Source: a virus (lineage: Duplodnaviria; Caudoviricetes). Taken from it: a DNA stretch of 62,851 nucleotides. Position numbers and translations under genes: made by a program. How positions within the stretch are numbered: the first letter of the stretch is position 1; the number at the start of each line of letters is the position of its first letter. Shown here piece after piece: positions 1-62,228 of this stretch. Under the pieces are notes generated by a model. That model searched no databases, was not told the origin of the DNA, and saw only the letters and a list, made by a program, of their open reading frames with translations. The stretch lies in the IMG/VR virus record IMGVR_UViG_3300017914_000417, positions 1 to 62,851 of that record; one strand, given 5' to 3'.

Positions 1-2059
1 AGTGGTGACAAACCAAGCAGAGGTTAGCGAACCACTTTGGAGGGCAGGGCTATCCATCGCAAAGTTTTGTACGGACGGAGAGAAAGCGGCTCACGCTATA
101 TCGAAAGACCATCCTGAGTACACACGAGAAGATACTATCAAGAAGATAGAACTTATAAAAGGTCCGTACACCTGTGCTAAGTTTGATGAGTTTAACGCTG
201 GGGTTTGCGTTAACTGTCCGAATTGGGGCAAAATTAAGTCGCCAATTACGTTAGGGCAACAAATTAAGGAAGCCGAACCAGACGAGGTAGTGGAAGAAGA
301 GTTAGGGAACTCCCTAACAAAACAGTACGTCATTCCGCCATACCCACGCCCGTATTTTCGTGGCGCAAATGGTGGGGTGTACACTCGCACTACCAACGCT
401 GAAGGCGACATGGACGAAACACTGATATATCACAATGATATATACGTTGTGCGTAGGTTACGTGACCCCGAACTTGGAGAGGCTATAGTTATGCGACTGC
501 ACCTGCCGCAAGACGGGGTGCGCGAGTTTACTGTGCCGCTAACTTCTGTCACCTCAAAAGAAGAGTTTCGCAAAGCTATGGCTATGGAAGGGGTGGCTGT
601 CACAAGAATGGATCCGCTTATGACTTACGTAACATCATGGGTAAACGAGTTACAGACTACTTCTAAGGCTGACAAAGCACACCGCCAGTTTGGGTGGACG
701 GATGAGAAATGCACCTCGTTTGTTTTGGGGGATAGGATTATCCATGCCGACAGCACCGAGCCTAACCCGCCTACTTCGCACACTGCCAGCCTTCTACCGT
801 CATTCGAGCCTAGAGGTGACATAGAAGAATGGAAGTCAATGCTGAACTTCTACAACAAAGACGGTTTTCAGTTACATCAGTTTGTTATCGGTGCGTCATT
901 TGGTTCGGCTTTGATGGAGTTATCGTCTATAAACTGCGCTGGTATCCACCTGTACGGCAAGTCAGGCGTGGGTAAAACTACGGCTATGGAAGCAGGGCTA
1001 AGTTTATGGGGCAACCCGAAGAACTTGCTGACATCGCAAAACGACACGCACAACACCCGTATGCACAGGGGCGAGATATACCATAGTCTTCCGCTGTATA
1101 TGGACGAACTTACTAACGCTAGGGCGTGGGAGTTGTCCGATATTGTGTATCAGCTTACTAGCGGTAAGCAACGTGGGCGTATGTCCAGTGGTAGCAATAC
1201 AGAACGTTATCGGGGCGAGCCGTGGAAACTGTTAGCAGTGACATCGGCAAACGCTAGTATGTGGGAAAAGATTAGCGGTGCGAAAGCTATGCCGACAGCA
1301 GAGGCACAGCGGATGCTAGAGGTAAATGTGCCTAAGATGGAACTGCCACCAAAAGAGCAGACCGATGCACTACAGCATAAAGTTGCCAATAACTACGGCC
1401 TGGCGGCGGAGCAGTACATACAATACGTGATAAGAAATCTAGACGAAGTTAAAAAACTCATAAACCAGGTCCAGCTACGTCTCGATGAACAGGCTGGGCT
1501 AGAAGCCGCCAACAGGTTCTGGTCTGTTGCAGGTACGATGCCCATTGTGGGTATTCTAATCGCCAAGCAGTTGGGCTTTGTATCATATGATACTAAACAG
1601 CTGTTTGCATGGGTGGTGGACACTCTGAAGCAGAACGTACGTGGTGTCAAAGATATGGACGTATCCGTAGAACAGACCCTGAATGATTATATGCACGAAC
1701 ATTGGGGCAATGTGCTGTGGATTAAAAGCACGGACGACCTACGCGGCAAGGCTGTGGACAACGGTGGGCTGGACTCGCTCATCACGCCAGAAATACTGCC
1801 GAGGGGCAAGCTGATAGCGCGGTATGAGACCGATGTAAAACGCGCCTACTTACTACCTAAACCTTTGAAGGCGTGGTGTGTAGAACAGCAGATACACTAC
1901 GGTATGTTTATACAGGATTTAAAAACTAAGATGGGCGCCCAGCAGAAGAAGGTGCGGTTGAGTAAAGGCACGAACATGAGCCTGCCGCCAACGTCATGCT
2001 ATGTTGTCCACTGTGATATAGAAGGCGTGGATGAAACAGGGAATACTCAGGAAGAATGA
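1..2059 (+). CDS. Primase-helicase, C-terminal part (PriCT-like + Cys cluster + DUF927 helicase); 5'-truncated
   Basis: EPLWRAGLSIAKFC, C-x8-C-x2-C, Walker A GKSGVGKT, Walker B LYMDE; N-terminal primase half at 62229-62851. Confidence 0.85.
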   Translation, partial: VVTNQAEVSEPLWRAGLSIAKFCTDGEKAAHAISKDHPEYTREDTIKKIELIKGPYTCAKFDEFNAGVCVNCPNWGKIKSPITLGQQIKEAEPDEVVEEELGNSLTKQYVIPPYPRPYFRGANGGVYTRTTNAEGDMDETLIYHNDIYVVRRLRDPELGEAIVMRLHLPQDGVREFTVPLTSVTSKEEFRKAMAMEGVAVTRMDPLMTYVTSWVNELQTTSKADKAHRQFGWTDEKCTSFVLGDRIIHADSTEPNPPTSHTASLLPSFEPRGDIEEWKSMLNFYNKDGFQLHQFVIGASFGSALMELSSINCAGIHLYGKSGVGKTTAMEAGLSLWGNPKNLLTSQNDTHNTRMHRGEIYHSLPLYMDELTNARAWELSDIVYQLTSGKQRGRMSSGSNTERYRGEPWKLLAVTSANASMWEKISGAKAMPTAEAQRMLEVNVPKMELPPKEQTDALQHKVANNYGLAAEQYIQYVIRNLDEVKKLINQVQLRLDEQAGLEAANRFWSVAGTMPIVGILIAKQLGFVSYDTKQLFAWVVDTLKQNVRGVKDMDVSVEQTLNDYMHEHWGNVLWIKSTDDLRGKAVDNGGLDSLITPEILPRGKLIARYETDVKRAYLLPKPLKAWCVEQQIHYGMFIQDLKTKMGAQQKKVRLSKGTNMSLPPTSCYVVHCDIEGVDETGNTQEE
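301..318. repeat. Palindrome GTTAGGG-AACT-CCCTAAC (in helicase CDS)
   Basis: Read directly. Confidence 0.9.
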
Positions 2060-46456: not shown

Positions 46457-46474
46457 GTTAGGGAATTCCCTAAC
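46457..46474. repeat. Palindrome GTTAGGG-AATT-CCCTAAC
   Basis: Read directly; upstream of first early gene. Confidence 0.9.
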
Positions 46475-46499
46475 AGTCATACGAAAAGGAAAACAAGTT

Positions 46500-47021
46500 A
46501 TGACAAATTCAAATATCACTCTTTCTGCTAAGGCATCAACTCTCATTAAAACTTTCGTATCTCGAGAGGCTGGCTATCAAAAAGCCAGAGCCGCATTGCT
46601 GGACGAGCTGGCTAACACTGGCTGGACTAGCGCGCATCTGCGCTCGCCTAAAACTTCTGGACTATGTACGCCAGAGGCATGGGCGGCATTGAACAAGGCG
46701 GTTGCCATGACACTACCGAAAGCCACATGCCAGCTTGTTCTGGCGGATTCGGTTAAAGGCATGACGGATGCGCAGAAAGACAAGCGCAGAAAAGCTATGC
46801 AACAAATCGGCTCGCTGATTAAAGATTTGCGTAACGCAATGGCGAGACGAGAGCCTAAAGAGAGCCGTCCAGTGGTGGCGCCATCTGAGCGCCATCTCAA
46901 ATCGCTTCAGAACATGGTAACATGGATTGACGAGATTGATGGCGAGCCAGCTGGCAAGGCGTTTGATGTAGTCGAGATTAAATCTCAACTCAACAAGTTG
47001 ATTGCCATGATGAGAGGCTAA
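46500..47021 (+). CDS. First early gene, hypothetical helical protein (173 aa)
   Basis: AGGAAAACAAGTT-ATG; palindrome upstream; own terminator. Confidence 0.7.
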   Translation: MTNSNITLSAKASTLIKTFVSREAGYQKARAALLDELANTGWTSAHLRSPKTSGLCTPEAWAALNKAVAMTLPKATCQLVLADSVKGMTDAQKDKRRKAMQQIGSLIKDLRNAMARREPKESRPVVAPSERHLKSLQNMVTWIDEIDGEPAGKAFDVVEIKSQLNKLIAMMRG

Positions 47022-47031
47022 CACCAACGAG

Positions 47032-47061
47032 AAAGGCAGGGTTTTTACCCTGCCTTTTTTT
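47032..47061 (+). terminator. Intrinsic terminator
   Basis: AAAGGCAGGGT-TTTT-ACCCTGCCTTT followed by T-run. Confidence 0.85.
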
Positions 47062-47077
47062 GTGCCTAATTTTTGGC

Positions 47078-47189
47078 GATGCCAGTTCCGTAGCCGCGTC
47101 GAGTTCGTGCATCGCACAGCTACGAGTTTTGTTAGGGACTTCCCTAACACTTGTACTGATGTGATACCAGTTCCGTAGCCGCGTCGAGT
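47078..47189. repeat. Pair of 27-bp direct repeats (47078-47104, 47163-47189)
   Basis: GATRCCAGTTCCGTAGCCGCGTCGAGT, 1 mismatch. Confidence 0.85.
47131..47148. repeat. Palindrome GTTAGGG-ACTT-CCCTAAC
   Basis: Read directly; between the 27-bp direct repeats. Confidence 0.9.
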
Positions 47190-47190
47190 G

Positions 47191-47524
47191 AATGTTCCAA
47201 ATGTTCCTATGAATGTTCCAGAATGTTCCTTTTTATTTCGGCAAAAAGGTACATTAGCAAATCGTGGTAAATCGTGTCGTGCGGTGGTTTACAACGGTAT
47301 CCTGTTAGGGAAATCCCTAACAAATAAGACTATATATATATAATGTTCCTTTTATAAATATTACTATCCACCGTGACGACTAGCCTATAACAAGTGTATG
47401 TATGTTCCTTTATCTGTTCGCTTAGGTATGGCGTAGTGAATACCTCATAAATTAGGGAACATTAGAACATTACAGTTTTTACAGAGACTTACCTGTTCCC
47501 ACATACAGAACATTGTAGAACATT
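47191..47524. repeat. Iteron-like AATGTTCC octamer array in opposing orientations with an (AT)n tract; candidate origin or packaging region
   Basis: AATGTTCC at 47191, 47200, 47212, 47222, 47342; (G/A)GAACATT copies at 47456, 47464 and 47507-47524; TATATATATATA at ~47331. Confidence 0.6.
47304..47321. repeat. Palindrome GTTAGGG-AAAT-CCCTAAC
   Basis: Read directly; inside iteron-like region. Confidence 0.9.
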
Positions 47525-47561
47525 ACATCACTTACCACGTTTTACAACACCTAGTTACGAC

Positions 47562-47591
47562 TTGACACGAAGGGGTATTATGTGATACTAT
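47562..47591 (+). promoter_or_regulatory. Sigma70-type early promoter
   Basis: TTGACA-18 nt-TACTAT with TGn extension. Confidence 0.7.
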
Positions 47592-47596
47592 TAAGA

Positions 47597-47655
47597 ACAA
47601 TCAGAGTTTGACCAAATTTTTTCTTGTTTTCCTCCTTTGGTCATTCTCTGGTTGT
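47597..47655 (+). ncRNA. Leader hairpin with 19-nt U/C-rich loop antisense to the RBS of gene 46500
   Basis: Stems ACAATCAGAG/CTCTGGTTGT and TGACCAAA/TTTGGTCA; loop 47623-47633 is the reverse complement of 46487-46497. Confidence 0.5.
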
Positions 47656-47687
47656 ACCAACAACAACTTGTCATATGGAGAAACGAC

Positions 47688-48695
47688 ATGACATTCAATA
47701 CTACAAACATCAACGACTTTACTTCTAACGCCACAGCACCAGCCGATACAATCGGCTCGAACAAAGCTGACCTCGTTCTCAAGTTAGGGAACTCCCTAAC
47801 AAACGGAACATCACCTATCGACACCGAATCTGTTCCGTCACTAGCTTCTAGTGCAATGCTGGTAGAACTCAGCATCTCTGCATGGCGTGGTTCAAAGCTA
47901 GCCAAGCGTGAATCCGAAGAAGTAACACAGCGCGCCAATGCTGGCGACCGCACAGCCAGAGTGACCAAGAGCCTGTTACCAGATTGTGAGGAACTTAAAG
48001 CTATCCACACACATATCAACGCAATACGCGCCTACAACAATTCGGCAACTATGCCGTGGGGTAACATGGGGCAGAAGCTACTAGCGACCAAAGGCTACCC
48101 GACCTATCACAATGACATTACTGGCATGATTGCCGAAGGCTATCGTTTGGTTGACGCATTCTGTCAATCGTATGATTGGAAGATAGCAGATGCACAGGCA
48201 TCACTTGGCGATATGTTTGACAGTAACGATTACCCATCAGTGGATGACATACGCAGGAAGTTTGTATTCCGTTTGTCGTATCAACCGCTACCTGATGCTG
48301 GTGATTTCCGTATCGACATTGGCAATGAAGCTATGCGCGACATCCAAGAGAGATACAATTCTTTTTACGAGACTTGCTTCAAGCAAGCTATGGGTGATGT
48401 GTGGCAACGCGTTTACAAGGCTTTGTCTAACGCTTCCGAGCGCTTGGATTACTCTGACACAGAGGACAAGCGAGTATTCCGTGATTCGCTGGTTGGCAAC
48501 ATCATGGGTCTGGTCGATGTACTAGATGTATGTAATGTCACCAACGATACGCAGATGTCGGCACTACGCCAGCAACTGCAACAAGCCTTCGAGGGTATTA
48601 CCGCTGACGCATTGCGTGATGACGAGTACCTACGCAGGGAAACCAAGACCAATGTGGACGCTATCATCGCACAGCTTCCATCAATCGAAATGTAA
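47688..48695 (+). CDS. DUF3150-like protein
   Basis: GGAGAAACGAC-ATG; AMLVELSISAW, TMPWG, YPSVDDIRRKF..RL..PLP; precedes AAA/vWA pair. Confidence 0.6.
   Translation: MTFNTTNINDFTSNATAPADTIGSNKADLVLKLGNSLTNGTSPIDTESVPSLASSAMLVELSISAWRGSKLAKRESEEVTQRANAGDRTARVTKSLLPDCEELKAIHTHINAIRAYNNSATMPWGNMGQKLLATKGYPTYHNDITGMIAEGYRLVDAFCQSYDWKIADAQASLGDMFDSNDYPSVDDIRRKFVFRLSYQPLPDAGDFRIDIGNEAMRDIQERYNSFYETCFKQAMGDVWQRVYKALSNASERLDYSDTEDKRVFRDSLVGNIMGLVDVLDVCNVTNDTQMSALRQQLQQAFEGITADALRDDEYLRRETKTNVDAIIAQLPSIEM
47783..47800. repeat. Palindrome GTTAGGG-AACT-CCCTAAC (in CDS)
   Basis: Read directly. Confidence 0.9.
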
Positions 48696-48698
48696 TCA

Positions 48699-48716
48699 GT
48701 TAGGGTATTCCCTAAC
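48699..48716. repeat. Palindrome GTTAGGG-TATT-CCCTAAC
   Basis: Read directly; intergenic. Confidence 0.9.
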
Positions 48717-48740
48717 ATATTGTCAGAAGGAGAAACGACA

Positions 48741-49835
48741 ATGACTAATCAAGCTATCACAATGTATGCACAGTCTCTGGACGGTATCGCATCACTCATC
48801 AAAGCCAACGGCAACAAGCGCACTATCATCGTGCAAGGTGACATGGGTTGTGGCAAATCATCAATCCTCAAGATGTTGTCAGATATGTTGCCTGACCATG
48901 CGCCATGCTACTTCGATTGCACCACCAAAGACTTGGGTGACATCATGATTCCAAAGATGTCTGAGTTGGACGGACAGGACTATGTTCGGTTTGCAGTCAA
49001 CGAGGAGTTGGGCGTACATCTGGGCAAACCTGTCATCATCATGCTTGACGAGTTCGGCAAGTCCAATCCAGCGGTCAAGAACGCACTGCTTCGTTTGATA
49101 CAGGAGCGTGAGATTGGTGGCTACAAGTTGCACCCTGACAGCATCGTATTTGCTACCACCAACAAAGGCTCGGAGGGTGTCGGTGACTTGTTACCACCTC
49201 ATGCGCGTAACCGCGTCGCAGTCGTACCCACACGCAAACCAAGCAACATGGAGTGGATTGAGTGGGGCATCAACAACGGTGTTGACCACAGCTTGCTCGG
49301 TTGGGTGAAGGACAATCCGCATCTGTTCGCATCATTCGAGGATGTCAAAGACCCTGACGAGAACCCATACATCTTCCACCCGAAGGCACAACGCACATCG
49401 TTTGTCACACCACGCTCATTGGAAGCGGCATCCGATTGGCTACATTGTCGGGCTGAGTTCAGTGATGATGCGCTCACAGCTGTTCTCATGGGTACGATTG
49501 GTGAACGAGCGGCAATGGACTTGATGGCGTTTGTCAAACTGGCTGACCAGCTACCTACATTGGAGTCTATCAAGACTGACCCGAAGAACGCAAAAGTGCC
49601 TGACTCTGCCGCCGCAGTTTGCATGGTAGTCTATCGCACACTAGCAAGTCTGGACAAAGATTGGGTGTCACAGTGGATGGACTACATGGTGCGTCTGGAC
49701 AAAGAAGCACAGGGTATGTTTGCCAACGGTGTACGCTCACCCAAGTACAGCAAGCAAACAATGGTCATGACCAACAAGAAGTTCACCGAGTGGGCTATGC
49801 AGAACAACTATATGTTCGCTGGTGACAAGAAGTAA
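48741..49835 (+). CDS. MoxR-like AAA+ ATPase
   Basis: GDMGCGKS, IMLDE, ATTN, ARNR, TPRS. Confidence 0.85.
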   Translation: MTNQAITMYAQSLDGIASLIKANGNKRTIIVQGDMGCGKSSILKMLSDMLPDHAPCYFDCTTKDLGDIMIPKMSELDGQDYVRFAVNEELGVHLGKPVIIMLDEFGKSNPAVKNALLRLIQEREIGGYKLHPDSIVFATTNKGSEGVGDLLPPHARNRVAVVPTRKPSNMEWIEWGINNGVDHSLLGWVKDNPHLFASFEDVKDPDENPYIFHPKAQRTSFVTPRSLEAASDWLHCRAEFSDDALTAVLMGTIGERAAMDLMAFVKLADQLPTLESIKTDPKNAKVPDSAAAVCMVVYRTLASLDKDWVSQWMDYMVRLDKEAQGMFANGVRSPKYSKQTMVMTNKKFTEWAMQNNYMFAGDKK

Positions 49836-49838
49836 TCA

Positions 49839-49856
49839 GTTAGGGAATACCCTAAC
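49839..49856. repeat. Palindrome GTTAGGG-AATA-CCCTAAC
   Basis: Read directly; intergenic. Confidence 0.9.
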
Positions 49857-49880
49857 ATATTGTCAGAAGGAGAAACGACA

Positions 49881-51074
49881 ATGTTATCTATCGGAGTAAA
49901 TCTAACAGCAGAGCAACGACTGTCCAAAGCGGTCGTTGACATCATGGCTAACCCCAAGTATGTCGCTCTGTCTGGTGTCCTGATGATTGGCGAACGGTCA
50001 GTCACCAAAGCCAAAGCACCAACAGCTTGCACAGATGGCAAGAACGAATGGTACAATCCCGATTTCGTTGACACACTAAACGATGCCGAGTTGCGCTTCC
50101 TCGTATTGCACGAGTGCTATCACAAGCTGTACCGACACCTAATGACATGGAAACATCTTCACGAGCAGAATCACAGGATAGCCAACATCGCTTGTGATTA
50201 TGTCATCAACATCAAGATACAAGATGACAATCCTGATGGCTGGGCAAAGATGCCCGAAGGTGGCTACCTCGATGAGAAGTATCGTAACTGGGATACCGCA
50301 CAGGTATTCAAGGACATCTACGACAATGATGACGATGGCGGTGACGGTGGACGCGGTGGCGATGGCGGTCAAGGTTTCGATGACCACGATTGGGAAGGCG
50401 CACAAGAGATGACCGCTGATGAGCAACGCGAGTTGGCTCGTGAGTTGGACGAAGCTATCCGACAAGGTGCGCTCGTTGCTGGCAAGACTGGCTCTGGTGG
50501 TGACAGAGACTTGGCGGAACTGCTACAGCCACAGGTCAACTGGCGCGAGGTGTTGCGTGATTTCGTGACAACAAATTGTGCTGGCAAGGACTTCTCGACT
50601 TGGAAGCGACCTAGCCGCAGGTATGCCGCATCTGGTTACTATATGCCTAGTGCTATCAGTGAGCAGATTGGTGGGCTGGTTGTTGCCAACGATATGTCTG
50701 GCTCTATCGGTCAGCGTGAGATATCCGTCTGTCTTACCGAAACCAAAGAGGTATGCGATACAGTGCATCCCGATTGGGTACGCATCCTGTATTGGGATAC
50801 GCAGGTTTGTGGTGACGAGTTGTACCAGAACAACGAACTGGACACGATGATACAATCCACAAAGCCTGTCGGTGGTGGCGGCACTATGCTGTCTTGTGTA
50901 CCCAAGCACATGACCAAAGAGGGTATCGAACCTCAAGCTGTAATTGTCGTGACCGATGGCTACATTGGGGATTGGGGTACATTCAACTGTCCTGTCCTGT
51001 TTGTCATCATCGACAATCCGTCATGCAAAGCACCATTCGGTGTTACCGTCAATGTCAAGTCAAGAGATATGTAA
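49881..51074 (+). CDS. DUF2201-type metallopeptidase + vWA domain protein
   Basis: PTACTDG, LHECYH, MIDAS DMSGS, GGGGT, VTDG. Confidence 0.85.
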   Translation: MLSIGVNLTAEQRLSKAVVDIMANPKYVALSGVLMIGERSVTKAKAPTACTDGKNEWYNPDFVDTLNDAELRFLVLHECYHKLYRHLMTWKHLHEQNHRIANIACDYVINIKIQDDNPDGWAKMPEGGYLDEKYRNWDTAQVFKDIYDNDDDGGDGGRGGDGGQGFDDHDWEGAQEMTADEQRELARELDEAIRQGALVAGKTGSGGDRDLAELLQPQVNWREVLRDFVTTNCAGKDFSTWKRPSRRYAASGYYMPSAISEQIGGLVVANDMSGSIGQREISVCLTETKEVCDTVHPDWVRILYWDTQVCGDELYQNNELDTMIQSTKPVGGGGTMLSCVPKHMTKEGIEPQAVIVVTDGYIGDWGTFNCPVLFVIIDNPSCKAPFGVTVNVKSRDM

Positions 51075-51077
51075 ACA

Positions 51078-51095
51078 GTTAGGGTATTCCCTAAC
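51078..51095. repeat. Palindrome GTTAGGG-TATT-CCCTAAC
   Basis: Read directly; abuts RBS. Confidence 0.9.
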
Positions 51096-51107
51096 AAGGA
51101 GAAAGCT

Positions 51108-51305
51108 ATGAAACAGAGTAAAGAAGATATCATGTACGATGGGTCATCTATGGTAATCAACAACCTAGAACAAGTCCTGTCCAAAGAACTAGGTGCAGAC
51201 TTCAAGTGGGAATGGCGGTCTGTAGTCGGTGGAGACGAACTAAATCCTATATGGAGTCTCACACTGTTTGTTGAACCAAAGGAATATACAGAGGAGTCAG
51301 AGTAA
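51108..51305 (+). CDS. Hypothetical protein
   Basis: AAGGAGAAAGCT-ATG. Confidence 0.6.
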   Translation: MKQSKEDIMYDGSSMVINNLEQVLSKELGADFKWEWRSVVGGDELNPIWSLTLFVEPKEYTEESE

Positions 51306-51781
51306 TGGGTTATCGTTCCGAAGTATGGCTCACTGTCGCAGTACCAACACAGACAATCTTGTCAGAACTGGTATCAGTGTATGCGCTGGATGAGCGTGTC
51401 AAAAAACACAAAGTGCTAGATGATTTCGTGGTCAAGTATCACACGGACAGTTGCTTATTCTACACCCTGACCATCCATGCCACAGACACAAAGTGGTATG
51501 AGATGTTCGAGGATGTGCAAGCGGCACACTATCTGGCTGAACTATGTCAGAGTTTCTACCAAGAACGTGGTGACGAGTTTGCGTACGCTTACAAGTTTAT
51601 TCGTATCGGAGAAGAAACAGGCGACATCGAGCATGACTCACATGAGTCTAACAATGCTCTAGGTCAGCTGATGGCTGATGAGATGAACGACCACGCATGG
51701 TCAGTCCAAATGATTGAAATCACGAACACAGGTACAGATGTTAGGGTTTCCCTAACACCCAACGGTATAACAGTCGAGTAA
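51305..51781 (+). CDS. Hypothetical protein (MGYRS-type phage early protein)
   Basis: MGYRSEV...KWY...FIRIGEE. Confidence 0.7.
   Translation: MGYRSEVWLTVAVPTQTILSELVSVYALDERVKKHKVLDDFVVKYHTDSCLFYTLTIHATDTKWYEMFEDVQAAHYLAELCQSFYQERGDEFAYAYKFIRIGEETGDIEHDSHESNNALGQLMADEMNDHAWSVQMIEITNTGTDVRVSLTPNGITVE
51740..51756. repeat. Palindrome GTTAGGG-TTT-CCCTAAC (in CDS)
   Basis: Read directly; 3-nt spacer. Confidence 0.9.
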
Positions 51782-51792
51782 GGAGAAACACA

Positions 51793-52818
51793 ATGGCTTT
51801 ATATTACACAAACTACAGAACTTTCGCAGATGTTGTAGAGGACTATAACAAAATCAAACCTATCGTATCCAAGAACCACACAAGGGCAGATGATGTCCGT
51901 CCTATCGGTGACAGGGCGCGGAAACAAGAGCGCATTATCAAGCTGGACAATAACTGCTATGCTTTGTCGGATTGGGATACGCCTGACCAGATATTCTATT
52001 GGGGTCATACCGAACCACCTGTACCCAAAGAGACACGCGACTTTGCACCTATACTATGGCGCAAGCGTGGTGGCTCGGAGTATGTGCATATTCGCAATGG
52101 TGTCGGGCAAGCCGCACACAATGGTAGGTACTCATTCCTCAGCAGACATCTACCACCGCGTATGGATTTTGTCATCGACAACGGCAAGCAGTTTGTTCGG
52201 TATCAAGGTAGGCGGTATTTCCTACCCAAAGGAAAGTACTGGTGGCCTACTCGCGTGGATTACATGAACGAACATTACAACAAGGGCAACCAGAACATAC
52301 GCAGAGAGCAGTACAAGACTGGTCGCAATCCTGAACTTGTTTTCAAGCGTGATGGTGATAACTGGATTATCCAGAATGAACACTCACTACCCAAGCCGCC
52401 ACGCCAGTTGGTTCGCAAGGGTGTCAAGGCAAGATACGCGAAGGCTCTCAATTCTCTACGCGAGTATGTTTTCGCAATGGCGCCTGTTATCGTAGTGCAA
52501 GACGATGGGAGTTATTACCGCAGACATAATTGGGAGCAAGAGATGTCCATGCGTTCTGAGTTTGCGCAGGCAGTCAAGGAGCATTATCCTGAGTATGATA
52601 CGGATGACCGCTATTTCGCAATGAATAGCATTCCGCCAAAACTTGCACTAGACATCATTACCAGCTACAATGATTCACTAAGATTATACCTTGCTTATCA
52701 GTTTGGCATAGATTCTGATATCTGTACTATGTCCGACCAAGAAGATGTTAAGCGTGTCAAAGCACAATACAACCGCTGGATAAACAAGTTGTGTGGTTTC
52801 ACAAAGGTAGTTAGTTAG
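51793..52818 (+). CDS. Hypothetical protein (341 aa)
   Basis: AGGAGAAACACA-ATG; long ORF. Confidence 0.75.
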   Translation: MALYYTNYRTFADVVEDYNKIKPIVSKNHTRADDVRPIGDRARKQERIIKLDNNCYALSDWDTPDQIFYWGHTEPPVPKETRDFAPILWRKRGGSEYVHIRNGVGQAAHNGRYSFLSRHLPPRMDFVIDNGKQFVRYQGRRYFLPKGKYWWPTRVDYMNEHYNKGNQNIRREQYKTGRNPELVFKRDGDNWIIQNEHSLPKPPRQLVRKGVKARYAKALNSLREYVFAMAPVIVVQDDGSYYRRHNWEQEMSMRSEFAQAVKEHYPEYDTDDRYFAMNSIPPKLALDIITSYNDSLRLYLAYQFGIDSDICTMSDQEDVKRVKAQYNRWINKLCGFTKVVS

Positions 52819-52831
52819 GGAGTTCCCTAAC
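52814..52831. repeat. Palindrome GTTAGGG-AGTT-CCCTAAC
   Basis: Read directly; supplies TAG stop of upstream gene. Confidence 0.9.
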
Positions 52832-52857
52832 AAGTTGACATAAGAAGGAGAAACGAA

Positions 52858-53691
52858 ATGTCATTTACACCAAAGTTAGTAAAAGAAGTAAAAGCTAAGT
52901 ACAACAATGTCGAAGCAGGAGAGGAGTTGCTACTTCTCATCTGCAAGCTGAAAGGGGTGATGCCGACTTTGCACACCCATGTCACATCCTCTGGCACAGC
53001 GTACTTGTACATGAACAACCAGCCATATGTATTGGGGCGCATCAAGTACGGACAGTTACAGGACAGCACTATGGACTATATGTATGGTGTGGTCAGTCCG
53101 AATATCTGTAACGAAAAGTACAGTGACCACCGTGAGTTGTTCAGCACTAAGATGACGAAGAACGTGGACACGGCACTAAAACATGTAAAGAAGTATGTGC
53201 GTCCTATGTCTCTTACCGACATCGCCAGGCAGAGTACAAACGATTATGAGCATACGGTGCGTAGGCTAGTGTCTCAGAAGGTCAACACAGCAGAACAAAG
53301 CAAGCGCAGTGTTTTGCAAGACGAGTTGATGACCGAGTTGCGTACGATGTATCAGACAGGGTACGAGTTCAATGCGACCCTTGCCGAGAAGATACATGAT
53401 TGGATTGCGGCTGATGAAGAAGCATCCAAGTATGAGCGTAAGTTCAAACAGCTTGAGTGTCGTTTCGTGCAAGTGAAGAACACACCGATGGGGCAACACC
53501 TATCGGTGGCGCAGTGTACTGATATGCTGTCGTACAGCACAAAGGTAACACCCACAGACGTGTTCACAGCAACTAACGCACCCGAAGAATTGGTGGGTAA
53601 GTTGTCAGTCTTAACCATACTCGAAGATGAAGCGTATGTTGAGGATGTAGGCATGAAGATTACAGACGAGTTGTTCTATGTCGAAGGATAA
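52858..53691 (+). CDS. Hypothetical protein (277 aa)
   Basis: GAAGGAGAAACGAA-ATG; long ORF. Confidence 0.75.
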   Translation: MSFTPKLVKEVKAKYNNVEAGEELLLLICKLKGVMPTLHTHVTSSGTAYLYMNNQPYVLGRIKYGQLQDSTMDYMYGVVSPNICNEKYSDHRELFSTKMTKNVDTALKHVKKYVRPMSLTDIARQSTNDYEHTVRRLVSQKVNTAEQSKRSVLQDELMTELRTMYQTGYEFNATLAEKIHDWIAADEEASKYERKFKQLECRFVQVKNTPMGQHLSVAQCTDMLSYSTKVTPTDVFTATNAPEELVGKLSVLTILEDEAYVEDVGMKITDELFYVEG

Positions 53692-53980
53692 ACCTGTTTA
53701 CATGGTTAAGTTGGAGACAGGTACTCTAGCCGACCACCGAGGCAAGATAAAAGTCTGGTGCATTGGGCTAGAGTGTCCTGACCCCAACGAGAGGGAAATA
53801 TATGATAATTTTGAGGAGTTACCCAAATGGATACAACGCAAGATTACAATATTGGATATGGTGCAATCTCGTGAGAGAGGGAAGTTATCAGTACTACCAC
53901 CTAGAGTTGACGGTGTAGGCACTGCATTTGGAACTTCCTATCAGATAATAAAGGATGAAGATGATGAAGACGATGGATAG
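53678..53980 (+). CDS. Hypothetical protein
   Basis: ELPKWIQRKITIL...VDGVG resembles the C-terminus of the upstream ORF (APEELVGKLSVL...VEDVG). Confidence 0.65.
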   Translation: MSKDKPVYMVKLETGTLADHRGKIKVWCIGLECPDPNEREIYDNFEELPKWIQRKITILDMVQSRERGKLSVLPPRVDGVGTAFGTSYQIIKDEDDEDDG

Positions 53981-54155
53981 AGTTAAGAATAGAGCGAAGG
54001 TACTCACCGTTATTATGGGTTCTTTCTTGGTATATTTTTTCGTGGCTATGTCAGCCTTGTTTTGGATTGACTGGTTGTGGATTTTCGGTGTTGAGGATAG
54101 TCAACAGTATACATGGTGGGGCATGATTTACGCCCTTGCAAATGGAGGATGGTAA
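53973..54155 (+). CDS. Small membrane protein
   Basis: One long hydrophobic segment, Trp-rich. Confidence 0.55.
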   Translation: MDRVKNRAKVLTVIMGSFLVYFFVAMSALFWIDWLWIFGVEDSQQYTWWGMIYALANGGW

Positions 54156-54156
54156 C

Positions 54157-54564
54157 ATGACGAATGAACTGAACGAAGTGAAGAAGGAACTGAAGCAAGT
54201 GAAAGATGCTTTGCGTAACTTCATGGTAACTTATCACAGTCAGATGGCAGATATTGTAGCACAACAAAAAGATGCCACTACAGTTTTAGAGGAACATTGG
54301 GCGCAGATAAAAAGACGACCAGTTGATTTAGAGCAGATGCGGCATGTTGTGTACGATGATGTAGAGAAACAAGTTGAGCGTCATCTAGCAGAACACATGA
54401 CTGTTTTTGACAGAGCGATAGACAATTACTTTTTTGATGCGCGGCTTGTGCCTAGCAAACGGATAAGCGATGTCTTGACCGAGACAGACCCAGATACCCT
54501 TGATGTTACCTTGTCGGGTAGCATAAAGGATGAGGTCAAAAAAGAAATGTCAAAAGGTGCTTGA
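54157..54564 (+). CDS. Hypothetical coiled-coil protein
   Basis: GGAGG upstream; heptad pattern. Confidence 0.6.
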   Translation: MTNELNEVKKELKQVKDALRNFMVTYHSQMADIVAQQKDATTVLEEHWAQIKRRPVDLEQMRHVVYDDVEKQVERHLAEHMTVFDRAIDNYFFDARLVPSKRISDVLTETDPDTLDVTLSGSIKDEVKKEMSKGA

Positions 54565-54611
54565 CAATAAGCTAAACTATCGTCAATTATTAAATCGTGA
54601 GGTAAAGTATT

Positions 54612-54905
54612 ATGACGCCAGAAGCTAAAGTAAAAAAGAAAGTTGTAGCAATGTTGAAGGAGTACGGTTGCTATTACTTTTATCCAGTGACAGGTGGTTA
54701 CGGTAAAAGCGGTGTGCCAGATATCGTAGCTTGTCACAACGGATACTTCATAGGTATCGAGTGCAAGGCGGGCAACAACAAGCCCACACCATTACAGGAA
54801 AAGAACTTGTCAGATATTAAGAAGTCCAATGGCGTGGCGATAGTTATTAACGAGGACAATCTCGAACTTGTTAGGGAAACCCTAACTTTACAAGAGATAA
54901 ACTAA
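54612..54905 (+). CDS. VRR-NUC nuclease (Holliday junction resolvase-like)
   Basis: TPEAKVK...GVPDI...IECK...PTPLQ. Confidence 0.85.
   Translation: MTPEAKVKKKVVAMLKEYGCYYFYPVTGGYGKSGVPDIVACHNGYFIGIECKAGNNKPTPLQEKNLSDIKKSNGVAIVINEDNLELVRETLTLQEIN
54870..54886. repeat. Palindrome GTTAGGG-AAA-CCCTAAC (in CDS)
   Basis: Read directly; 3-nt spacer. Confidence 0.9.
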
Positions 54906-54907
54906 TA

Positions 54908-54982
54908 GAGACTAGGCTTTTGCTTCTCCTTCCCTAGTCTCAGTGGGTGACAGTTGCTTTTGTTGTTGGTGCTGTCACCCAC
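54908..54982 (+). ncRNA. Twin-hairpin RNA with loops antisense to early-gene initiation regions
   Basis: Perfect 9-bp and 11-bp stems; loops CTTTTGCTTCTCCTTC and TTGCTTTTGTTGTTGGTG. Confidence 0.55.
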
Positions 54983-54999
54983 CCTTTGGGAGAAATGAT

Positions 55000-55329
55000 A
55001 TGAACTGTCCAGAATGTAAATCGAAATCTAAGGTAGACGAGTCCAGAACCAGAGACAATAACACATGGCGTAGACGTACTTGTTTGTCATGTAATCACAA
55101 ATATCAGACAGTTGAAAAACTGTTTGTGAAACCAGTTACGAAACCAGTTACCGCGCCCACGAAAGTTAGGGAAAACCCTAACAAAAGAAAACGCAGAAAG
55201 AGTTTCGTGCCACTACAGAAGAAGCATGAGCCAGCAGTGATGCGCGAACCTGATGTAGACTCGATGACCGATGAAGAATTGGAAGCTTGGATTTTTTCAG
55301 AGGGGGCTAGCTTCGATGATGAGGATTAA
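55000..55329 (+). CDS. NrdR-like Zn-ribbon protein (no ATP cone)
   Basis: MNCPEC...KVDESR...RRRTCLSC...YQTVE. Confidence 0.75.
   Translation: MNCPECKSKSKVDESRTRDNNTWRRRTCLSCNHKYQTVEKLFVKPVTKPVTAPTKVRENPNKRKRRKSFVPLQKKHEPAVMREPDVDSMTDEELEAWIFSEGASFDDED
55165..55182. repeat. Palindrome GTTAGGG-AAAA-CCCTAAC (in CDS)
   Basis: Read directly. Confidence 0.9.
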
Positions 55330-55504
55330 AGTAGGGGAGAAGGGATACTTTCAAAAAGCGATTGATGCAGGTTTGTGTCCAAAATGCAAGACTAAAGTAG
55401 ATTACAGCGTTGACCCTACGGTCTGTAGTGTGTGCAAACTAGAAATGACTGGTGCAACAAAGGACGAAAAGGAATCTAGGCATGACAGAAGAACAGAGAT
55501 TTAA
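55316..55504 (+). CDS. Small Zn-ribbon protein
   Basis: CPKC...CSVC. Confidence 0.55.
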   Translation: MMRIKVGEKGYFQKAIDAGLCPKCKTKVDYSVDPTVCSVCKLEMTGATKDEKESRHDRRTEI

Positions 55505-55643
55505 GGAATGGTTAAAAACTAGTCCTTTTATGTGGACGATTGTAGATAGTATCAGTGATGAGAACGCATTGGTGGTATCTTTTGATATTGTCCGAACCAA
55601 AGATGAACGGCAGTTAGAGTTGCCGTTTGAACCCGAAGCCTAA
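55482..55643 (+). CDS. Hypothetical protein
   Basis: FKEWLKTSP; C-terminal QLELPF, a beta-clamp-binding-like motif. Confidence 0.55.
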   Translation: MTEEQRFKEWLKTSPFMWTIVDSISDENALVVSFDIVRTKDERQLELPFEPEA

Positions 55644-55655
55644 TGGAGAAATGAT

Positions 55656-56135
55656 ATGGCAAGGAAGAAGACTACGAAGCACGAAAAAGTTTGGAAGATG
55701 TTACTGGCGAACCCGAAAGCCCCTGTGAAAGAAATAGCAGAGAAGGCAGGGTGTTCAACCAAGTACGTGTACATGCTAAAGAGCAAGATAGGTACACCAA
55801 TGGAAGTGTTAGTACCAGACACTAAGAAGAAAGACCTAGATGCTTGGAACGGACTCGGCGGAACAGTACGTAAGTCACGCTCAAACGTGTTGGCACAAGC
55901 AGACAAGCTGGTCAATGGCGCTCGAGCAGACGAGTACGGTGATGCGAAGCAGAACTTTGATGACATTGCAAAGATGTGGTCAGTGTTGTTAGGAACAGAA
56001 ATAACAGCACAGCAGGTAGCATTGTGCATGATTGCGGTGAAGTCAGCTAGGCTGATGAAGTCCGACAGCCCCGACAGTTGGGTAGACATCTGCGGTTACG
56101 GTGCGCTGGGTGGAGAGATGCAATCAGATGCTTGA
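55656..56135 (+). CDS. HTH + DUF6378-like protein
   Basis: VKEIAEKAGCSTKYVY HTH; R..EYGDA..NF..IA.MWS...DSWVDICGYGAL. Confidence 0.75.
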   Translation: MARKKTTKHEKVWKMLLANPKAPVKEIAEKAGCSTKYVYMLKSKIGTPMEVLVPDTKKKDLDAWNGLGGTVRKSRSNVLAQADKLVNGARADEYGDAKQNFDDIAKMWSVLLGTEITAQQVALCMIAVKSARLMKSDSPDSWVDICGYGALGGEMQSDA

Positions 56136-56307
56136 GCGCAAATGTGATAAATGTGAGGAGTACGCCATTGTTAATAGCGATGGCGTATTTTCCTGCCCTT
56201 CGTGTTGGATGAAACGAGTAAAAGAGGAAGAAAAACGTGGACGTAATAACCCTAGATTTCGAGACGTTCTACAGCAAAGAGTTCAGTCTACGAAAAGTTA
56301 CGACTGA
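56128..56307 (+). CDS. Small Zn-finger protein (uncertain)
   Basis: CDKC...CPSCW; overlaps polymerase start by ~70 nt. Confidence 0.4.
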   Translation: MLERKCDKCEEYAIVNSDGVFSCPSCWMKRVKEEEKRGRNNPRFRDVLQQRVQSTKSYD

Positions 56308-58063
56308 GGAGTACATACGAGACTCTCGGTTTGAAGTTATCGGTGTAGGTGTGAAGTTTAACAACGAACCTACCGAATGGGCTAGTGGTACACAGGAACA
56401 GTTGCAAGCGTACCTCAACATGTTTGATTGGGGTAACGCTATGCTGGTCTGCCACAATACGATGTTCGATGGGGCGATACTGAACTGGCGGTTTGGTATC
56501 AAGCCGAAGGCTTATGCAGACACGATGTGCATGGCACGAGCAATTCATGGCGTGGAAACAAGTGCTAGTTTGAGAGCAATCAGCGATAAGTACGGAGTTG
56601 GTACGAAAGGTTACGAAGTAAACAACGCGCAGGGTAAGAACCGCGTGGACTTTACTGATGCCGAACTTGCCGCGTATGGCGATTATTGTGTCACTGACGT
56701 AGACCTGACATTCAAGCTGTTCAAGATTATGGCTAACGACTTTCCGAAGATGGAGATGAAGCTGATAGACCTGACGTTGCGGATGTTTATTGACCCTATG
56801 CTGGAGTTAGACTTGGGGCTACTTGAACAGCACCTCACCGAAACAAAAGACCGTAAGGATGAACTGCTGGAGAAAGCAGGGGTGAGTAAAGAAGAACTGA
56901 TGAGCAATCCGAAGTTTGCGGAGTTGTTGCGGCAGTTAGGTGTAGAGCCGCCTATGAAGGTCAGTCCGACTACAGGTAAAGAGACATACGCTTTCGCCAA
57001 GACAGACGAAGCGTTCAAGGCTCTGGCAGAACACGACAACGACAAAGTGCAATCGTTGGTGTCAGCTAGACTTGGTACGAAGAGTACACTAGAGGAAACA
57101 CGTACACAGAGGTTTATAGATATAGCTAAACGTGGAACACTTCCCGTACCGATACGCTACTATGCCGCACATACTGGCAGATGGGGCGGTGATGACAAGA
57201 TTAACTTGCAGAACTTACCGAGCCGTGGCGTAAACGGCAAAAAGCTAAAACGTGGTATCATCGCACCAGAGGGCTACAGCTTGATTGATGCTGACTCGTC
57301 ACAGATTGAAGCGCGAGTGCTGGCGTGGCTAGCCGAACAGGACGACCTGACCCAAGCCTTTGCCAACGGTGAAGATGTTTATGTGAAGATGGCTTCTCGC
57401 ATCTACGGCGTCCCCGAAGAAGATGTATCCAAAGACCAACGGTTTGTGGGTAAGACCACTATCTTGGGCGCAGGGTACGGCATGGGAGCAGTTAAATTTC
57501 AAGCACAATTAAAAAACTTTGGGTTTGATATGGAGTTAGAAGAAGCCCGAAGGGTAATCAACATCTACCGTGATGCGAACTGGAAGATTAACCAGCTATG
57601 GCGAGACGCTAACAATACGTTGACCTATATGTTGAGAGGCGACAGGTTAAACTTTGGTAAGGCTGGAGTGATTACTGCTTATACGAGCCCTACAGGTTTA
57701 CTATTACCCTCAAACTTGTTGTTACGTTATGATGGGCTAGGGGCAGAACAGGGTGAGAAGGGCATAGAGATGTCCTACAAAACACGACTAGGCCGAACAC
57801 GCATCTACGGTGGAAAAGTTATAGAGAATGTGTGCCAAGCGATAGCACGTTGCATTATTGGTGAGCAGATGCTAAAAATAGCTAGCAAATACAAAGTTGT
57901 GATGACAGTGCATGACTCGATTGTATGTTGCGTACGAGACGATGAGGTCAGCGAAGCCCAACAATATGTTGAGGGATGTATGCGCTGGACACCTGATTGG
58001 GCAGATGGCTTACCGATTGATTGTGAGTCTGGCACAGGCAAATCGTATGGGGATTGTGGATGA
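56237..58063 (+). CDS. polA: DNA polymerase family A with 3'-5' exonuclease
   Basis: ExoI DFET; HTGRW; NLQNLP; motif A DSSQIEAR; motif B RFVGKTTILGAGYG; motif C VHDS. Confidence 0.92.
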   Translation: MDVITLDFETFYSKEFSLRKVTTEEYIRDSRFEVIGVGVKFNNEPTEWASGTQEQLQAYLNMFDWGNAMLVCHNTMFDGAILNWRFGIKPKAYADTMCMARAIHGVETSASLRAISDKYGVGTKGYEVNNAQGKNRVDFTDAELAAYGDYCVTDVDLTFKLFKIMANDFPKMEMKLIDLTLRMFIDPMLELDLGLLEQHLTETKDRKDELLEKAGVSKEELMSNPKFAELLRQLGVEPPMKVSPTTGKETYAFAKTDEAFKALAEHDNDKVQSLVSARLGTKSTLEETRTQRFIDIAKRGTLPVPIRYYAAHTGRWGGDDKINLQNLPSRGVNGKKLKRGIIAPEGYSLIDADSSQIEARVLAWLAEQDDLTQAFANGEDVYVKMASRIYGVPEEDVSKDQRFVGKTTILGAGYGMGAVKFQAQLKNFGFDMELEEARRVINIYRDANWKINQLWRDANNTLTYMLRGDRLNFGKAGVITAYTSPTGLLLPSNLLLRYDGLGAEQGEKGIEMSYKTRLGRTRIYGGKVIENVCQAIARCIIGEQMLKIASKYKVVMTVHDSIVCCVRDDEVSEAQQYVEGCMRWTPDWADGLPIDCESGTGKSYGDCG

Positions 58064-58722
58064 GTGAAAAGTGGTCGTTCAGTAGGCTCAAGTCTTTCGA
58101 GCAATGTCCGAAACAGTTTTATCATGTAAAGGTGAAGCGAGAGTACGAAGAGCCTGAGACTGAGGCTATGCTGTACGGCTCTGAGTTTCACCTTGCTTGT
58201 GAGGAATACGTCCGAGACAGAAAACCAATCCCAAAGAAGTTTGAGTATATCAAACCTACACTTGATTCGCTGATCGCCAAAGAAGGTGAGAAGTTATGTG
58301 AATACAAGATGGGGATTACGGTAGACCTAGAACCATGCACGTTCTTTGCCGACAATGTTTGGTGGCGCGGTATTGCAGATTTAGTTATACTGAATGGCGA
58401 TGAGGCTACCGTGATTGATTACAAAACGGGTAAGTCCACACGTTACGCAGATAAAGGCCAGCTGGAGTTGATGGCTCTGGCTACTTTCAAACACTTTCCA
58501 ACGGTGAAGAAAGTAAAGGCTGGGCTACTGTTTGTGGTATGTAACGAACTTATACGCGATACATACAACGCAGACCAACAGCCAGAACTGTGGAAGAAGT
58601 GGCTCGATAAGTATGGTGCGATGGAAGCGGCTTTCGAGAACGATGTGTGGAATCCCAACCCAAGTGGGCTTTGTAGGCGGCATTGTGTAGTGCTGGAGTG
58701 TCCACATAACGGGAGAGGCTAA
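58060..58722 (+). CDS. PD-(D/E)xK exonuclease (Cas4/AddB-like Cys cluster)
   Basis: SFSRL...QCP, GIADL, DYKTGK, QLELMA, C..HC...CPH. Confidence 0.85.
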   Translation: MSEKWSFSRLKSFEQCPKQFYHVKVKREYEEPETEAMLYGSEFHLACEEYVRDRKPIPKKFEYIKPTLDSLIAKEGEKLCEYKMGITVDLEPCTFFADNVWWRGIADLVILNGDEATVIDYKTGKSTRYADKGQLELMALATFKHFPTVKKVKAGLLFVVCNELIRDTYNADQQPELWKKWLDKYGAMEAAFENDVWNPNPSGLCRRHCVVLECPHNGRG

Positions 58723-58979
58723 TGCCATATACTAAATCTAAAAGGCCGTACAAGAAAGAGTACGAGCAACAGAAAGCCAGAGGCGAACACAAGAACAGAA
58801 TGGAACGCCAGAGAGCAAGACGCAAGCTTGACAAGAAAGGCGTTAACCGCAAAGGTAAAGATGTAGCCCACAAGAAAGCGTTAAGTAAGGGTGGGTCTAA
58901 CAAGGACGGTTACACATTACAAAGCCCAAAGAAGAACCGCAGTGCTGGTGGGCGAATGAGTAAGCCAAAGAAAAGTTAG
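58722..58979 (+). CDS. Small HNH-like basic protein
   Basis: KDVAHKKALSKGGSN...NRS. Confidence 0.65.
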   Translation: MPYTKSKRPYKKEYEQQKARGEHKNRMERQRARRKLDKKGVNRKGKDVAHKKALSKGGSNKDGYTLQSPKKNRSAGGRMSKPKKS

Positions 58980-58992
58980 GGAGTTCCCTAAC
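58975..58992. repeat. Palindrome GTTAGGG-AGTT-CCCTAAC
   Basis: Read directly; supplies TAG stop and abuts helicase RBS. Confidence 0.9.
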
Positions 58993-62214: not shown

Positions 62215-62228
62215 CGGGAGAGGTTGTT

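Follow-up and report, generated by a model that had tools for sequence, protein, structure and literature searches.

A few cultured actinophages are known to carry dispersed operator arrays, and in phiC31 conserved inverted repeats bound by the repressor lie in many early intergenic gaps. Lambdoid Cro and CI operators are 17-18-bp dyads read by a dimer, and Cro, the product of the first early gene, turns down its own operon; near-identical lambdoid phages differ in the specificity (immunity) cassette, and since their operators are clustered at two promoters, a swap of that cassette carries all of them along. Hairpin-forming elements are familiar from N4, which has three virion-RNA-polymerase hairpin promoters and a giant polymerase gene, and from lambda nut boxB, in which the loop is conserved, not the stem. 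The Cluster A mycobacteriophages L5 and Bxb1 carry stoperators, 20-30 short sites scattered over transcribed regions at which one phage protein blocks elongation, and the stoperator consensus and the protein co-vary between related phages; as described in these reports, stoperators are asymmetric 13-bp sites oriented with transcription, they occur in both arms of temperate phages, and the repressor that binds them is a monomer of two domains (PMC6550527, PMC9283540). Cluster O mycobacteriophages carry a 17-bp dyad, TGTTCGG-NNN-CCGAACA, with 34 copies spread genome-wide in Corndog; its authors proposed a dimeric binder, and the parts of their report that deal with the repeat identify neither the binder nor the function, nor lineage-specific versions (PMC4351075). 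Here we analyze a palindrome, GTTAGGG-N3/4-CCCTAAC, that is repeated along one arm of an uncultured marine phage (Duplodnaviria; Caudoviricetes), using as our window the complete IMG/VR virus record IMGVR_UViG_3300017914_000417 at its full length of 62,851 bp.

On balance, and with modest confidence, we favor the reading that these palindromes are operators, each bound as duplex DNA by a dimer of gp46500, in a roadblock-type shut-down of the early arm. The proposed dimeric binder, gp46500, is a 173-aa protein encoded by the first gene of the + strand arm (46500..47021, +), and the part of it that varies with the palindrome is a helix spanning residues 90-117.

Thirteen palindromes in the early arm

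The record is complete and circularly permuted, since an open reading frame (ORF) beginning at 62229 runs in frame into positions 2-2059. Its + strand early arm extends from 46.3 kb to the end and then over 1-2.4 kb, for a total of 18.9 kb, and its - strand late arm occupies 2.3-46.3 kb. An exact scan returned exactly 13 copies of the palindrome, with a spacer of 4 nt in 11 of them and 3 nt in the other two. These are the 13 copies that a first-pass annotation, made from the sequence alone, had listed, and the scan found no others. None appeared in 100 dinucleotide-preserving shuffles, and scans allowing up to three mismatches revealed no further credible copy in the window. Lone half-sites are not enriched (7 occurrences of GTTAGGG on both strands, against about 7.7 expected). 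The arms are invariant and the spacers take 10 different forms among the 13 sites, with reverse-complement pairs present, which agrees with what had been noted from the letters.

All 13 sites fall within 30% of the genome (P = 1.7e-7 under uniform placement). The annotation had seen no copy in the late arm, and exact and mismatch-tolerant scans turned up a single look-alike there, at 41999 (GTTAGGG-T-CACTAAC), which has a spacer of 1 nt and one arm that belongs to another type. The impression that copies are densest near the divergence point also stands, with nine of the 13 in the first 6.4 kb of the 18.9-kb arm (binomial P ~0.01).

Most sites sit at gene boundaries: eight of the 13 end no more than 40 nt upstream of a start codon, one of these starts being that of a doubtful 51-aa ORF. 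Palindrome 1 (GTTAGGG-AATT-CCCTAAC, 46457..46474) is intergenic, 25 nt upstream of the gp46500 start codon. Palindromes 2 (47131..47148) and 3 (47304..47321) lie in a 667-nt non-coding stretch, the former between two copies of a 27-nt direct repeat and the latter just upstream of a (TA)n run and AATGTTCC repeats. Three sites begin 3 nt past a stop codon and end 12-24 nt before the next start: palindrome 5 (48699..48716) follows the gp47688 gene and ends 24 nt before the start of an AAA ATPase gene, palindrome 6 (49839..49856) follows the AAA ATPase gene and ends 24 nt before the start of a DUF2201/VWA gene, and palindrome 7 (51078..51095) ends 12 nt before the next start, with the Shine-Dalgarno sequence adjoining. 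Two sites overlap a stop codon through the TAG in GTTAG, namely palindrome 9 (52814..52831), which supplies the stop of gp51793 and ends 26 nt before the next start, and palindrome 12 (58975..58992), which supplies the stop of gp58722 and ends 12 nt before the start of a SNF2 helicase gene. Five lie inside coding sequence: palindrome 4 (47783..47800) within the gene for the DUF3150-like protein gp47688, where it is read as LGNSLT; palindrome 8 (51740..51756, 3-nt spacer) within the 3' end of gp51305, 36 nt before the next start; palindrome 10 (54870..54886, 3-nt spacer) within the 3' end of an Hjc-like resolvase gene; palindrome 11 (55165..55182) within an NrdR-like zinc-ribbon gene; and palindrome 13 (301..318) within a primase-polymerase/DUF927 helicase gene, which belongs to the same + strand arm as the other 12 because the record is circularly permuted. 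The first-pass annotation had likewise counted five coding copies and two that give a TAG stop.

Several local signals accompany the sites. An intrinsic-terminator-like hairpin, as read from the sequence, with 11-bp arms, a 4-nt loop and a T run, comes right after gp46500 (47032..47061, +). The best sigma-70-like promoter match of the arm, a consensus match with TTGACA, a gap of 16-18 nt and an extended -10, lies about 100 nt upstream of gp47688 (47562..47591, +); such matches are no commoner in the window than in shuffles, and only one overlaps a site. A terminator-like match (GC-rich stem and T run) on the + strand was found at none of the 13 sites, and only the site at 58975 was flagged, on the - strand.

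The 27-nt direct repeat, GATrCCAGTTCCGTAGCCGCGTCGAGT, is found at 47078-47104 and 47163-47189, flanking palindrome 2, and elements of the GATACCAGTT type recur beside the palindromes of many related contigs. The (TA)n run in the 667-nt non-coding stretch is surrounded by at least four AATGTTCC repeats and by GAACATT copies in inverted orientation (47189-47233, 47342-47353 and 47456-47530), and both words are common to related contigs. To judge by its layout, this is possibly a replication origin, with elements resembling iterons and an unwinding element. The intergenic cassettes that follow palindromes 5 and 6 (48717-48745 and 49857-49885) are identical. In the predicted fold of the first of these cassettes, a second stem loops out the ribosome site and pairs the start-codon region, and a similar stem is predicted after palindrome 1.

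Palindrome versions in relatives and the first gene of the arm

With 365 relatives for its AAA ATPase, the phage is a member of a large uncultured family. In IMG/VR contigs, the same palindrome was found in at least 209 stretches, often in multiple copies per contig and usually just upstream of a ribosome site. We gathered loci of relatives by two routes, 11 through gp47688 and the others as the best 80 of the 365 AAA ATPase relatives, for a total of 92 sequences including the window. A repeated palindrome of its own is present in the + arm of 91 of the 92, in 12 arm versions. Types were assigned by hand from a listing of the palindromes, loci not listed being defaulted to GTTAGTG, and on this basis GTTAGTG is found in 39 sequences, GTTAGGG in 10 (window included), GTCGA-N6-TCGAC in nine, TTTAGGG in seven, GTTAGTC in six, GTTAGGC and GTTATAC in five each, GTTATAG and TTTACGG in three each, GTTATCC in two, and TTCGGGC and TGTAGTC in one each, with no palindrome seen in one sequence (locus L263). 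The sites are confined to one stretch of 3-11 kb in all five complete relatives. A freshwater relative with an AAA ATPase 56% identical to that of the window carries GTCTAA-NN-TTAGAC five times. Among relatives the 3-bp spacer is dominant (311 of 489 non-identical sites). GTTAGTG-type phages share, about 100 nt upstream of a regular site, a hybrid site with a left arm of GTTAGTG type and a right arm of GTTAGGG type (loci L248, L252, L259, L261, L262, L264, L268, L273, L305, L306 and L228).

Within these loci we found 54 members of the gp46500 family in 53 loci, and a whole-locus search added six more; in every case the gene is just downstream of the first palindrome. The proteins are about 165-210 aa long, all-helical and fast-evolving, and share a helix with the pattern K/R-R-x-x-Q-Q-I-G. 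A wider search of 1.84 billion proteins yielded 622 family representatives at E <= 1e-3, and every named member is annotated as 'hypothetical', without a Pfam domain.

Two pairs of closely related loci with different palindromes single out this gene. L238 (GTTAGTG) and L237 (TTTACGG) share 95-100% identity over most of about 6 kb. Identity falls in about 1 kb that holds the arm's first gene and, over short distances, at each palindrome, where GTTAGTG-type sites have been exchanged in place for TTTACGGAATTCCGTAAA; at one exchanged site, the 120 nt of flank are 92% identical. L293 (GTTAGGC) and L295 (TGTAGTC) are 98-100% identical in most 100-nt windows and diverge over the initial two thirds of the first gene (61-69% identical) and in a variable block at 7.1-8.7 kb, the palindrome being exchanged at four of five sites. 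The first gene is the one divergent gene-sized block that both pairs share. We regard these sequence comparisons as decisive for taking the first gene as the binder candidate.

Covariation within the protein points to the helix that may read the site. We aligned 46 family members and grouped them into 21 lineages at least 40% divergent outside the motif. Mean column identity is 26%, and the best-conserved stretch is K/R-R-x-x-Q-Q-I-G. The residues that follow Q-Q-I-G-x-x-x, within residues 101-112 of the long helix, sort by palindrome type. An inner GGG (GTTAGGG, TTTAGGG) goes with K-D-[LI]-[KR]-[NT] in six of six lineages, GTTAGTG with [NGT]-D-[FY] in eight of eight, and GTTATAG with [GI]-D-I and GTTAGTC with [NA]-K-I in two of two each. 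Within one lineage, GTTAGGC is paired with N-R-[VI], GTTATAC with V-K-V and TGTAGTC with G-K-V, and GTTAGYC sites are accompanied by N-K-V in two further loci. At arm position 7 of the GTTA- and TTTAGGG-type lineages, G corresponds to Asp and C to Lys or Arg; since Asp-cytosine and Lys/Arg-guanine are the usual major-groove contact pairs, this is the pattern expected from direct major-groove contacts. Gln-Gln is lost where the outer base changes (TTTAGGG, TGTAGTC). Five further fragment records with GTTAGGG sites served as an independent check: a family member is encoded in four, and K-D-[LIM] is present in three of these.

The structure of gp46500 was predicted by AlphaFold as all-helical (pLDDT 90.1, pTM 0.63), with residues 101, 102, 105, 108, 109 and 112 on one face of helix 90-117. 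We found no relative of gp46500 in Pfam, PHROGs or PDB sequences, and no helix-turn-helix fold in sequence and fold searches. Foldseek with the model gave a best E of 1.0 against the PDB and 0.067 against BFVD, and the VIA wide search gave a best Z of 6.8, a generic match covering only the C-terminal helical hairpin 120-173. Because these fold searches gave no match, no family can be named or excluded for the protein. A homodimer was predicted with a score of 0.80, against 0.17 for the best of three controls; contacts coincide to at least 92% across the three runs, and the pLDDT of the partner is at least 81. In calibration, the mark was reached by 20 of 30 solved homo-pairs and by 1 of 23 single chains, counts that hold only roughly here because our own alignment was used. 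The predicted interface is formed by helix 3-42, residues 55-71 and the C-terminal helices, with residue 106 the only contribution from helix 90-117. The model thus supports gp46500 pairing as a symmetric homodimer.

Other candidate binders fall within few of the fetched loci: the helix-turn-helix (HTH) protein at 60999 is found in 5 of 91, the NrdR-like protein at 55000 in 3 of 91 and the DUF6378 protein at 55656 in 23 of 91. Column-wise mutual information across 11 conserved families gave no clean predictor of palindrome type (best 0.82, leaving aside single columns in one family of 21 sequences). Profiles of gp47688, gp51793 and gp52858 have no match in PDB sequences, and an Atlas search of gp51793 gave nothing usable. 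We consider gp46500 the best candidate binder from these comparisons. The first-pass annotation had named it first among its candidates, a choice that the swapped pairs and the helix covariation strengthen, and had proposed asking whether relatives carry palindromes of their own that co-vary with one protein; for gp46500 they do, as seen from the 91 of 92 sequences with a palindrome, the swapped pairs and the 21 lineages. Its broader suggestion of a DNA site for a dimeric protein along the early arm gains support from the covariation of palindrome and gp46500 together with the predicted homodimer.

How the palindromes may act

In the operator reading, one symmetric gp46500 dimer would occupy each palindrome. 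Each half-site, (T)GTTAGGG, would be read in the major groove by one face of helix 90-117, with the conserved Gln-Gln-x-Gly part over the conserved outer bases GTTA and residues 108-112 (Lys-Asp-Leu-Arg-Asn) over the inner, lineage-specific bases. The gp46500 gene is probably self-regulating, because a site lies 25 nt before its own start and a terminator follows the gene. The other sites would act within a long polycistronic arm, mostly from gaps between a stop codon and a ribosome site, where bound dimers would hinder RNA polymerase along the early/replication arm, most strongly near its start. A roadblock seems the likeliest form of action because these gaps, with 12-26 nt to the start codon, leave no room for a host-type promoter, and the thinning of the sites with distance suggests that the block would be graded. 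That the sites matter is indicated by their being replaced strictly in place.

A number of observations weigh against this reading. Repression as the outcome is a guess, as the exchange of sites in place would also be compatible with a positive or a non-transcriptional role. Within one palindrome type the spacer varies from 3 to 5 bp, which a rigid dimer on B-DNA should not tolerate, and some spacers are oriented with transcription (for example ACT in 30 cases and AGT in 3), many of these sites being related by descent. The close pairs offer limited ground for comparison, with L237 ending just after the AAA gene and L293 and L295 being fragments of 15-19 kb. L295 keeps one site of the old type (GTTAGGC) at 9806, corresponding to 9908 in L293 in a stretch that is 98% identical, and from its sequence L295 looks like a recent mosaic midway through a specificity change. 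One of the four family members from the additional GTTAGGG records has G-D-F, a GTTAGTG-type signature and an exception at position 6. The [NG]-D-F form may accept either G or T at this position, since GTTAGTG-type phages tolerate single GTTAGGG half-sites, and the G-D-F record still counts as an exception. Palindrome type requires 12 changes on the first-gene tree, which is poorly resolved and has long branches, against 11-13 on the trees of five other proteins. When pairwise identity was compared between same-type and different-type pairs in 17 protein families, the first gene had the best area under the curve (AUC), 0.90 from 24 sequences only, and values nearly as high were obtained for the SNF2 helicase (0.89), the putative small terminase (0.81) and gp52858 (0.80). 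Finally, the Group B loci (GTCGA-N6-TCGAC) and L263 have no gp46500 family member at E <= 1e-3.

It is improbable, in our estimate, that gp46500 acts on the transcript, with the palindromes forming RNA hairpins for lambda-N-like antitermination, which would carry transcription beyond the terminator behind the gp46500 gene, or a translational operator that blocks ribosomes at the adjacent Shine-Dalgarno sequence. The order of hairpin, first gene and strong terminator would suit such a role, as would the basic character of the covarying helix, spacers of 3-5 nt, which make natural hairpin loops, and the partial orientation of these spacers with transcription. The RNA hairpin is stable (-10.6 kcal/mol) and is the sole structure in its 43-nt stretch, and on the + strand 249 of 489 non-identical sites are followed within 80 nt by a Shine-Dalgarno sequence and start codon, most often at 15-20 nt, compared with 27 on the - strand. 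However, the stems are invariant and the loops free, the reverse of most known protein-hairpin recognition. The 41 sites with one mismatch show no G-U-compatible excess (6 of the G-T type and 3 C-A), and 26 of them are hybrid half-sites at arm position 6, whose T-C mismatches would break a stem. Over all 463 sites, A follows the palindrome in 86% (398/463) and T precedes it in 58%; in the 143 sites outside long reading frames on both sides, the flanks are near-symmetric (T at -1 in 69%, A at +1 in 79%), and because the gap shrinks where coding does not constrain it, most of the asymmetry can be ascribed to the end of the upstream gene. Palindromes 2 and 3 lie between the terminator and the best promoter-like match, and the predicted symmetric dimer suits a dyad in duplex DNA. 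Taken together, we find duplex DNA roughly twice as credible as an RNA hairpin for the form that is bound. About as improbable as action on the transcript is that gp46500 binds DNA in a non-transcriptional role, organizing or marking the replication arm, such as parS-like loading or bridging close to the origin-like repeats, control of replication initiation, or shielding of the DNA that enters first. The strong bias to gene boundaries (8 of 13 sites) and the site in front of the binder's own gene argue against such a role, and no ParA/ParB-like (ParBc) or SMC-like partner was found with Pfam (62 proteins) or PHROGs (36 proteins). In its favor, the sites are densest beside the stretch with direct repeats, AATGTTCC iteron-like repeats and the (TA)n run, and three of the 13 lie deep in genes, where an expression signal would be unexpected; for the similar 7-N3-7 repeat of Cluster O, the authors judged a transcriptional role unlikely in the part of their report that treats it (PMC4351075).

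Two further explanations dispense with gp46500 as a binder, and we give little credence to either. The palindromes could be N4-like hairpin promoters for an unrecognised phage RNA polymerase, with transcription starting at the conserved A after the palindrome. In favor of this are the presence of that A at 398 of 463 sites, an AAA/VWA gene pair of N4-like character, three largely unexplained virion-arm proteins of 1452-2110 aa, and the lineage-specific versions, which resemble phage polymerase-promoter pairs. Yet no RNA polymerase was found by Pfam (62 proteins), PHROGs (36) or a PDB sequence search with the 2110-aa and 1452-aa proteins, and the covarying partner is no polymerase but a 173-aa helical protein. 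A leader of 12 nt from site to start codon would barely fit a ribosome site, and in unconstrained sites the A after the palindrome is nearly matched by the T before it. We consider hairpin promoters very unlikely. Slightly less probable still are passive elements, whether hairpins that stabilize mRNA 3' or 5' ends, weak terminators, or selfish repeats homogenized by gene conversion. Intergenic positions in one operon and stable folds would agree with this, and recombination between Cluster O repeats was seen by the authors who described them (PMC4351075). Arms that are identical within a genome, without covariation between them, five copies kept in coding sequence, and a terminator-like match at only 1 of 13 sites, on the - strand, all speak against it, and covariation with one protein helix across lineages would be unexpected. 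Both the hairpin promoters and the RNA-processing sites that the first-pass annotation had offered as alternatives are disfavored.

The operator reading invites a more speculative extension, which we regard as rather unlikely: the first-gene protein and its site array may form an immunity-like specificity system among lytic marine phages. The first-made protein of a resident phage would shut the early arm of a later phage with the same palindrome, and such shut-down would select for new protein-site pairs. If true, this would explain both the existence of at least 12 specificities and site-by-site replacement in genomes that are 95-100% identical, and it would provide a readable, re-targetable helix-to-base code in a protein fold not seen before.

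Genome context and comparison with described systems

By Pfam and PHROGs, the + arm encodes replication and recombination functions. A conserved trio heads the main operon (47688-51074, +), consisting of the DUF3150-like protein, a MoxR-class AAA ATPase and a DUF2201 peptidase/VWA protein; DUF3150 is the Atlas lead for gp47688, and the ATPase/VWA pair is closest to that of N4-like phages, at about 30% aa identity. The arm also encodes the Hjc-like resolvase, PolA, a PD-(D/E)XK nuclease, the SNF2 helicase and a small HTH protein, and it includes the primase-polymerase/DUF927 helicase gene, which by reading frame and Pfam extends from 62229 across the record's end to 2059 (+). Directly upstream of the latter gene is a match to the Rfam int-alpA RNA motif (62137-62218, +; 43.1 bits against a gathering score of 35.8). 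The - strand arm carries terminase, portal, capsid, SU10-type adaptor, tail and lysis genes, and the major capsid gene is closely followed by a match to the Rfam Mu-gpT-DE RNA motif (37464-37516, -; 73.6 bits). Three very large proteins are encoded in this arm, of 2110 aa (2347-8679, -), 1452 aa (12956-17314, -) and 1903 aa (27338-33049, -). The only matches of the 2110-aa protein are to C-terminal parts of giant DarB-like PHROG profiles, and the 1452-aa protein has no PHROG or Pfam match. At the divergent-arm junction, beside the putative small-terminase gene and 20-100 nt upstream of the first palindrome, is a G-rich box (46342-46365) of the GGGGTG...GGGGTAGGGT type, often placed after GGGACTCC, that is kept across lineages (L218, L221, L223 and L228-L304); from its position it may be a packaging site or genome end.

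Searches of GenBank phage DNA returned short holin or baseplate patches at most. The nearest cultured phages by terminase are 023Pt_psg01, HTVC027P, DSL-LC04 and HTVC023P (45-48% aa), whose replication modules differ, and in the two of these nearest genomes that we inspected a repeated palindrome is absent. The stretch, whole or in part, is present in 20 of 22 listed sequencing runs, all recorded as DNA. Single-protein and profile scans of 185,579 species genomes found no integrated copy, although lysogeny may still exist, and no integrase or partition gene is among the Pfam matches of the window's proteins. The profile scan matched three metagenome-assembled genome (MAG) contigs labelled Alphaproteobacteria, Flavobacteriales and Methylopumilus, labels too mixed for a host to be named. 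Our literature searches found no paper on this phage family.

Seen beside the lambdoid operators, the sites described here extend over 10-17 kb and are exchanged individually at their own positions, instead of traveling together at two promoters. Like the N4 hairpin promoters and lambda nut boxB, they are short palindromes able to form hairpins, placed near where the early region begins and occurring in lineage-specific versions. Unlike in N4, no polymerase gene was found with Pfam, PHROGs or the PDB sequence search, and unlike in lambda N/nut boxB, it is the loops that vary (10 spacers in 13 sites) and the arms that are invariant.

The array resembles the Cluster A stoperators, as those are described, in having many dispersed copies (13 here), mostly away from promoters, and in a site consensus that co-varies with the candidate binder, here with one exception, the G-D-F record. 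It departs from them in that its sites are perfect 7-N3/4-7 dyads of 17 or 18 bp restricted to one arm, that its candidate binder is a predicted dimer without a known fold where the Cluster A repressor is a monomer, and that no integrase (by Pfam) or prophage copy (in the 185,579 genomes) was found here, where the Cluster A phages are temperate (PMC6550527, PMC9283540). With the Cluster O repeat, so far as the report describes it, the array has in common invariant 7-bp arms around a free, A/T-rich spacer, the same TGTT...AACA ends, and a mixture of short-intergenic and intragenic positions. The Cluster O repeat differs in numbering more than 30 copies throughout the genome, compared with 13 in one arm here, and only in the present family is a binder proposed from covariation, with at least 12 specificities in one family (PMC4351075).

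The advantage of an abundant uncultured marine family is that it supplies many natural specificity variants, which point to the binder, to the reading helix and to residue-base pairs. What was an unexplained repeat becomes a pair that can be tested directly, a 173-aa protein with an 18-bp duplex. Confirmation of this pair would add a DNA-binding family without a known fold, comprising 622 sequence clusters, and would provide a model for the joint change of specificity in a regulator and more than ten scattered sites. The kind of control is known, from stoperators and from the Cluster O repeats; new are the gp46500 protein family, the readable covariation of helix and bases, the many specificities within a single abundant marine family, and the replacement of sites one by one in near-identical genomes.

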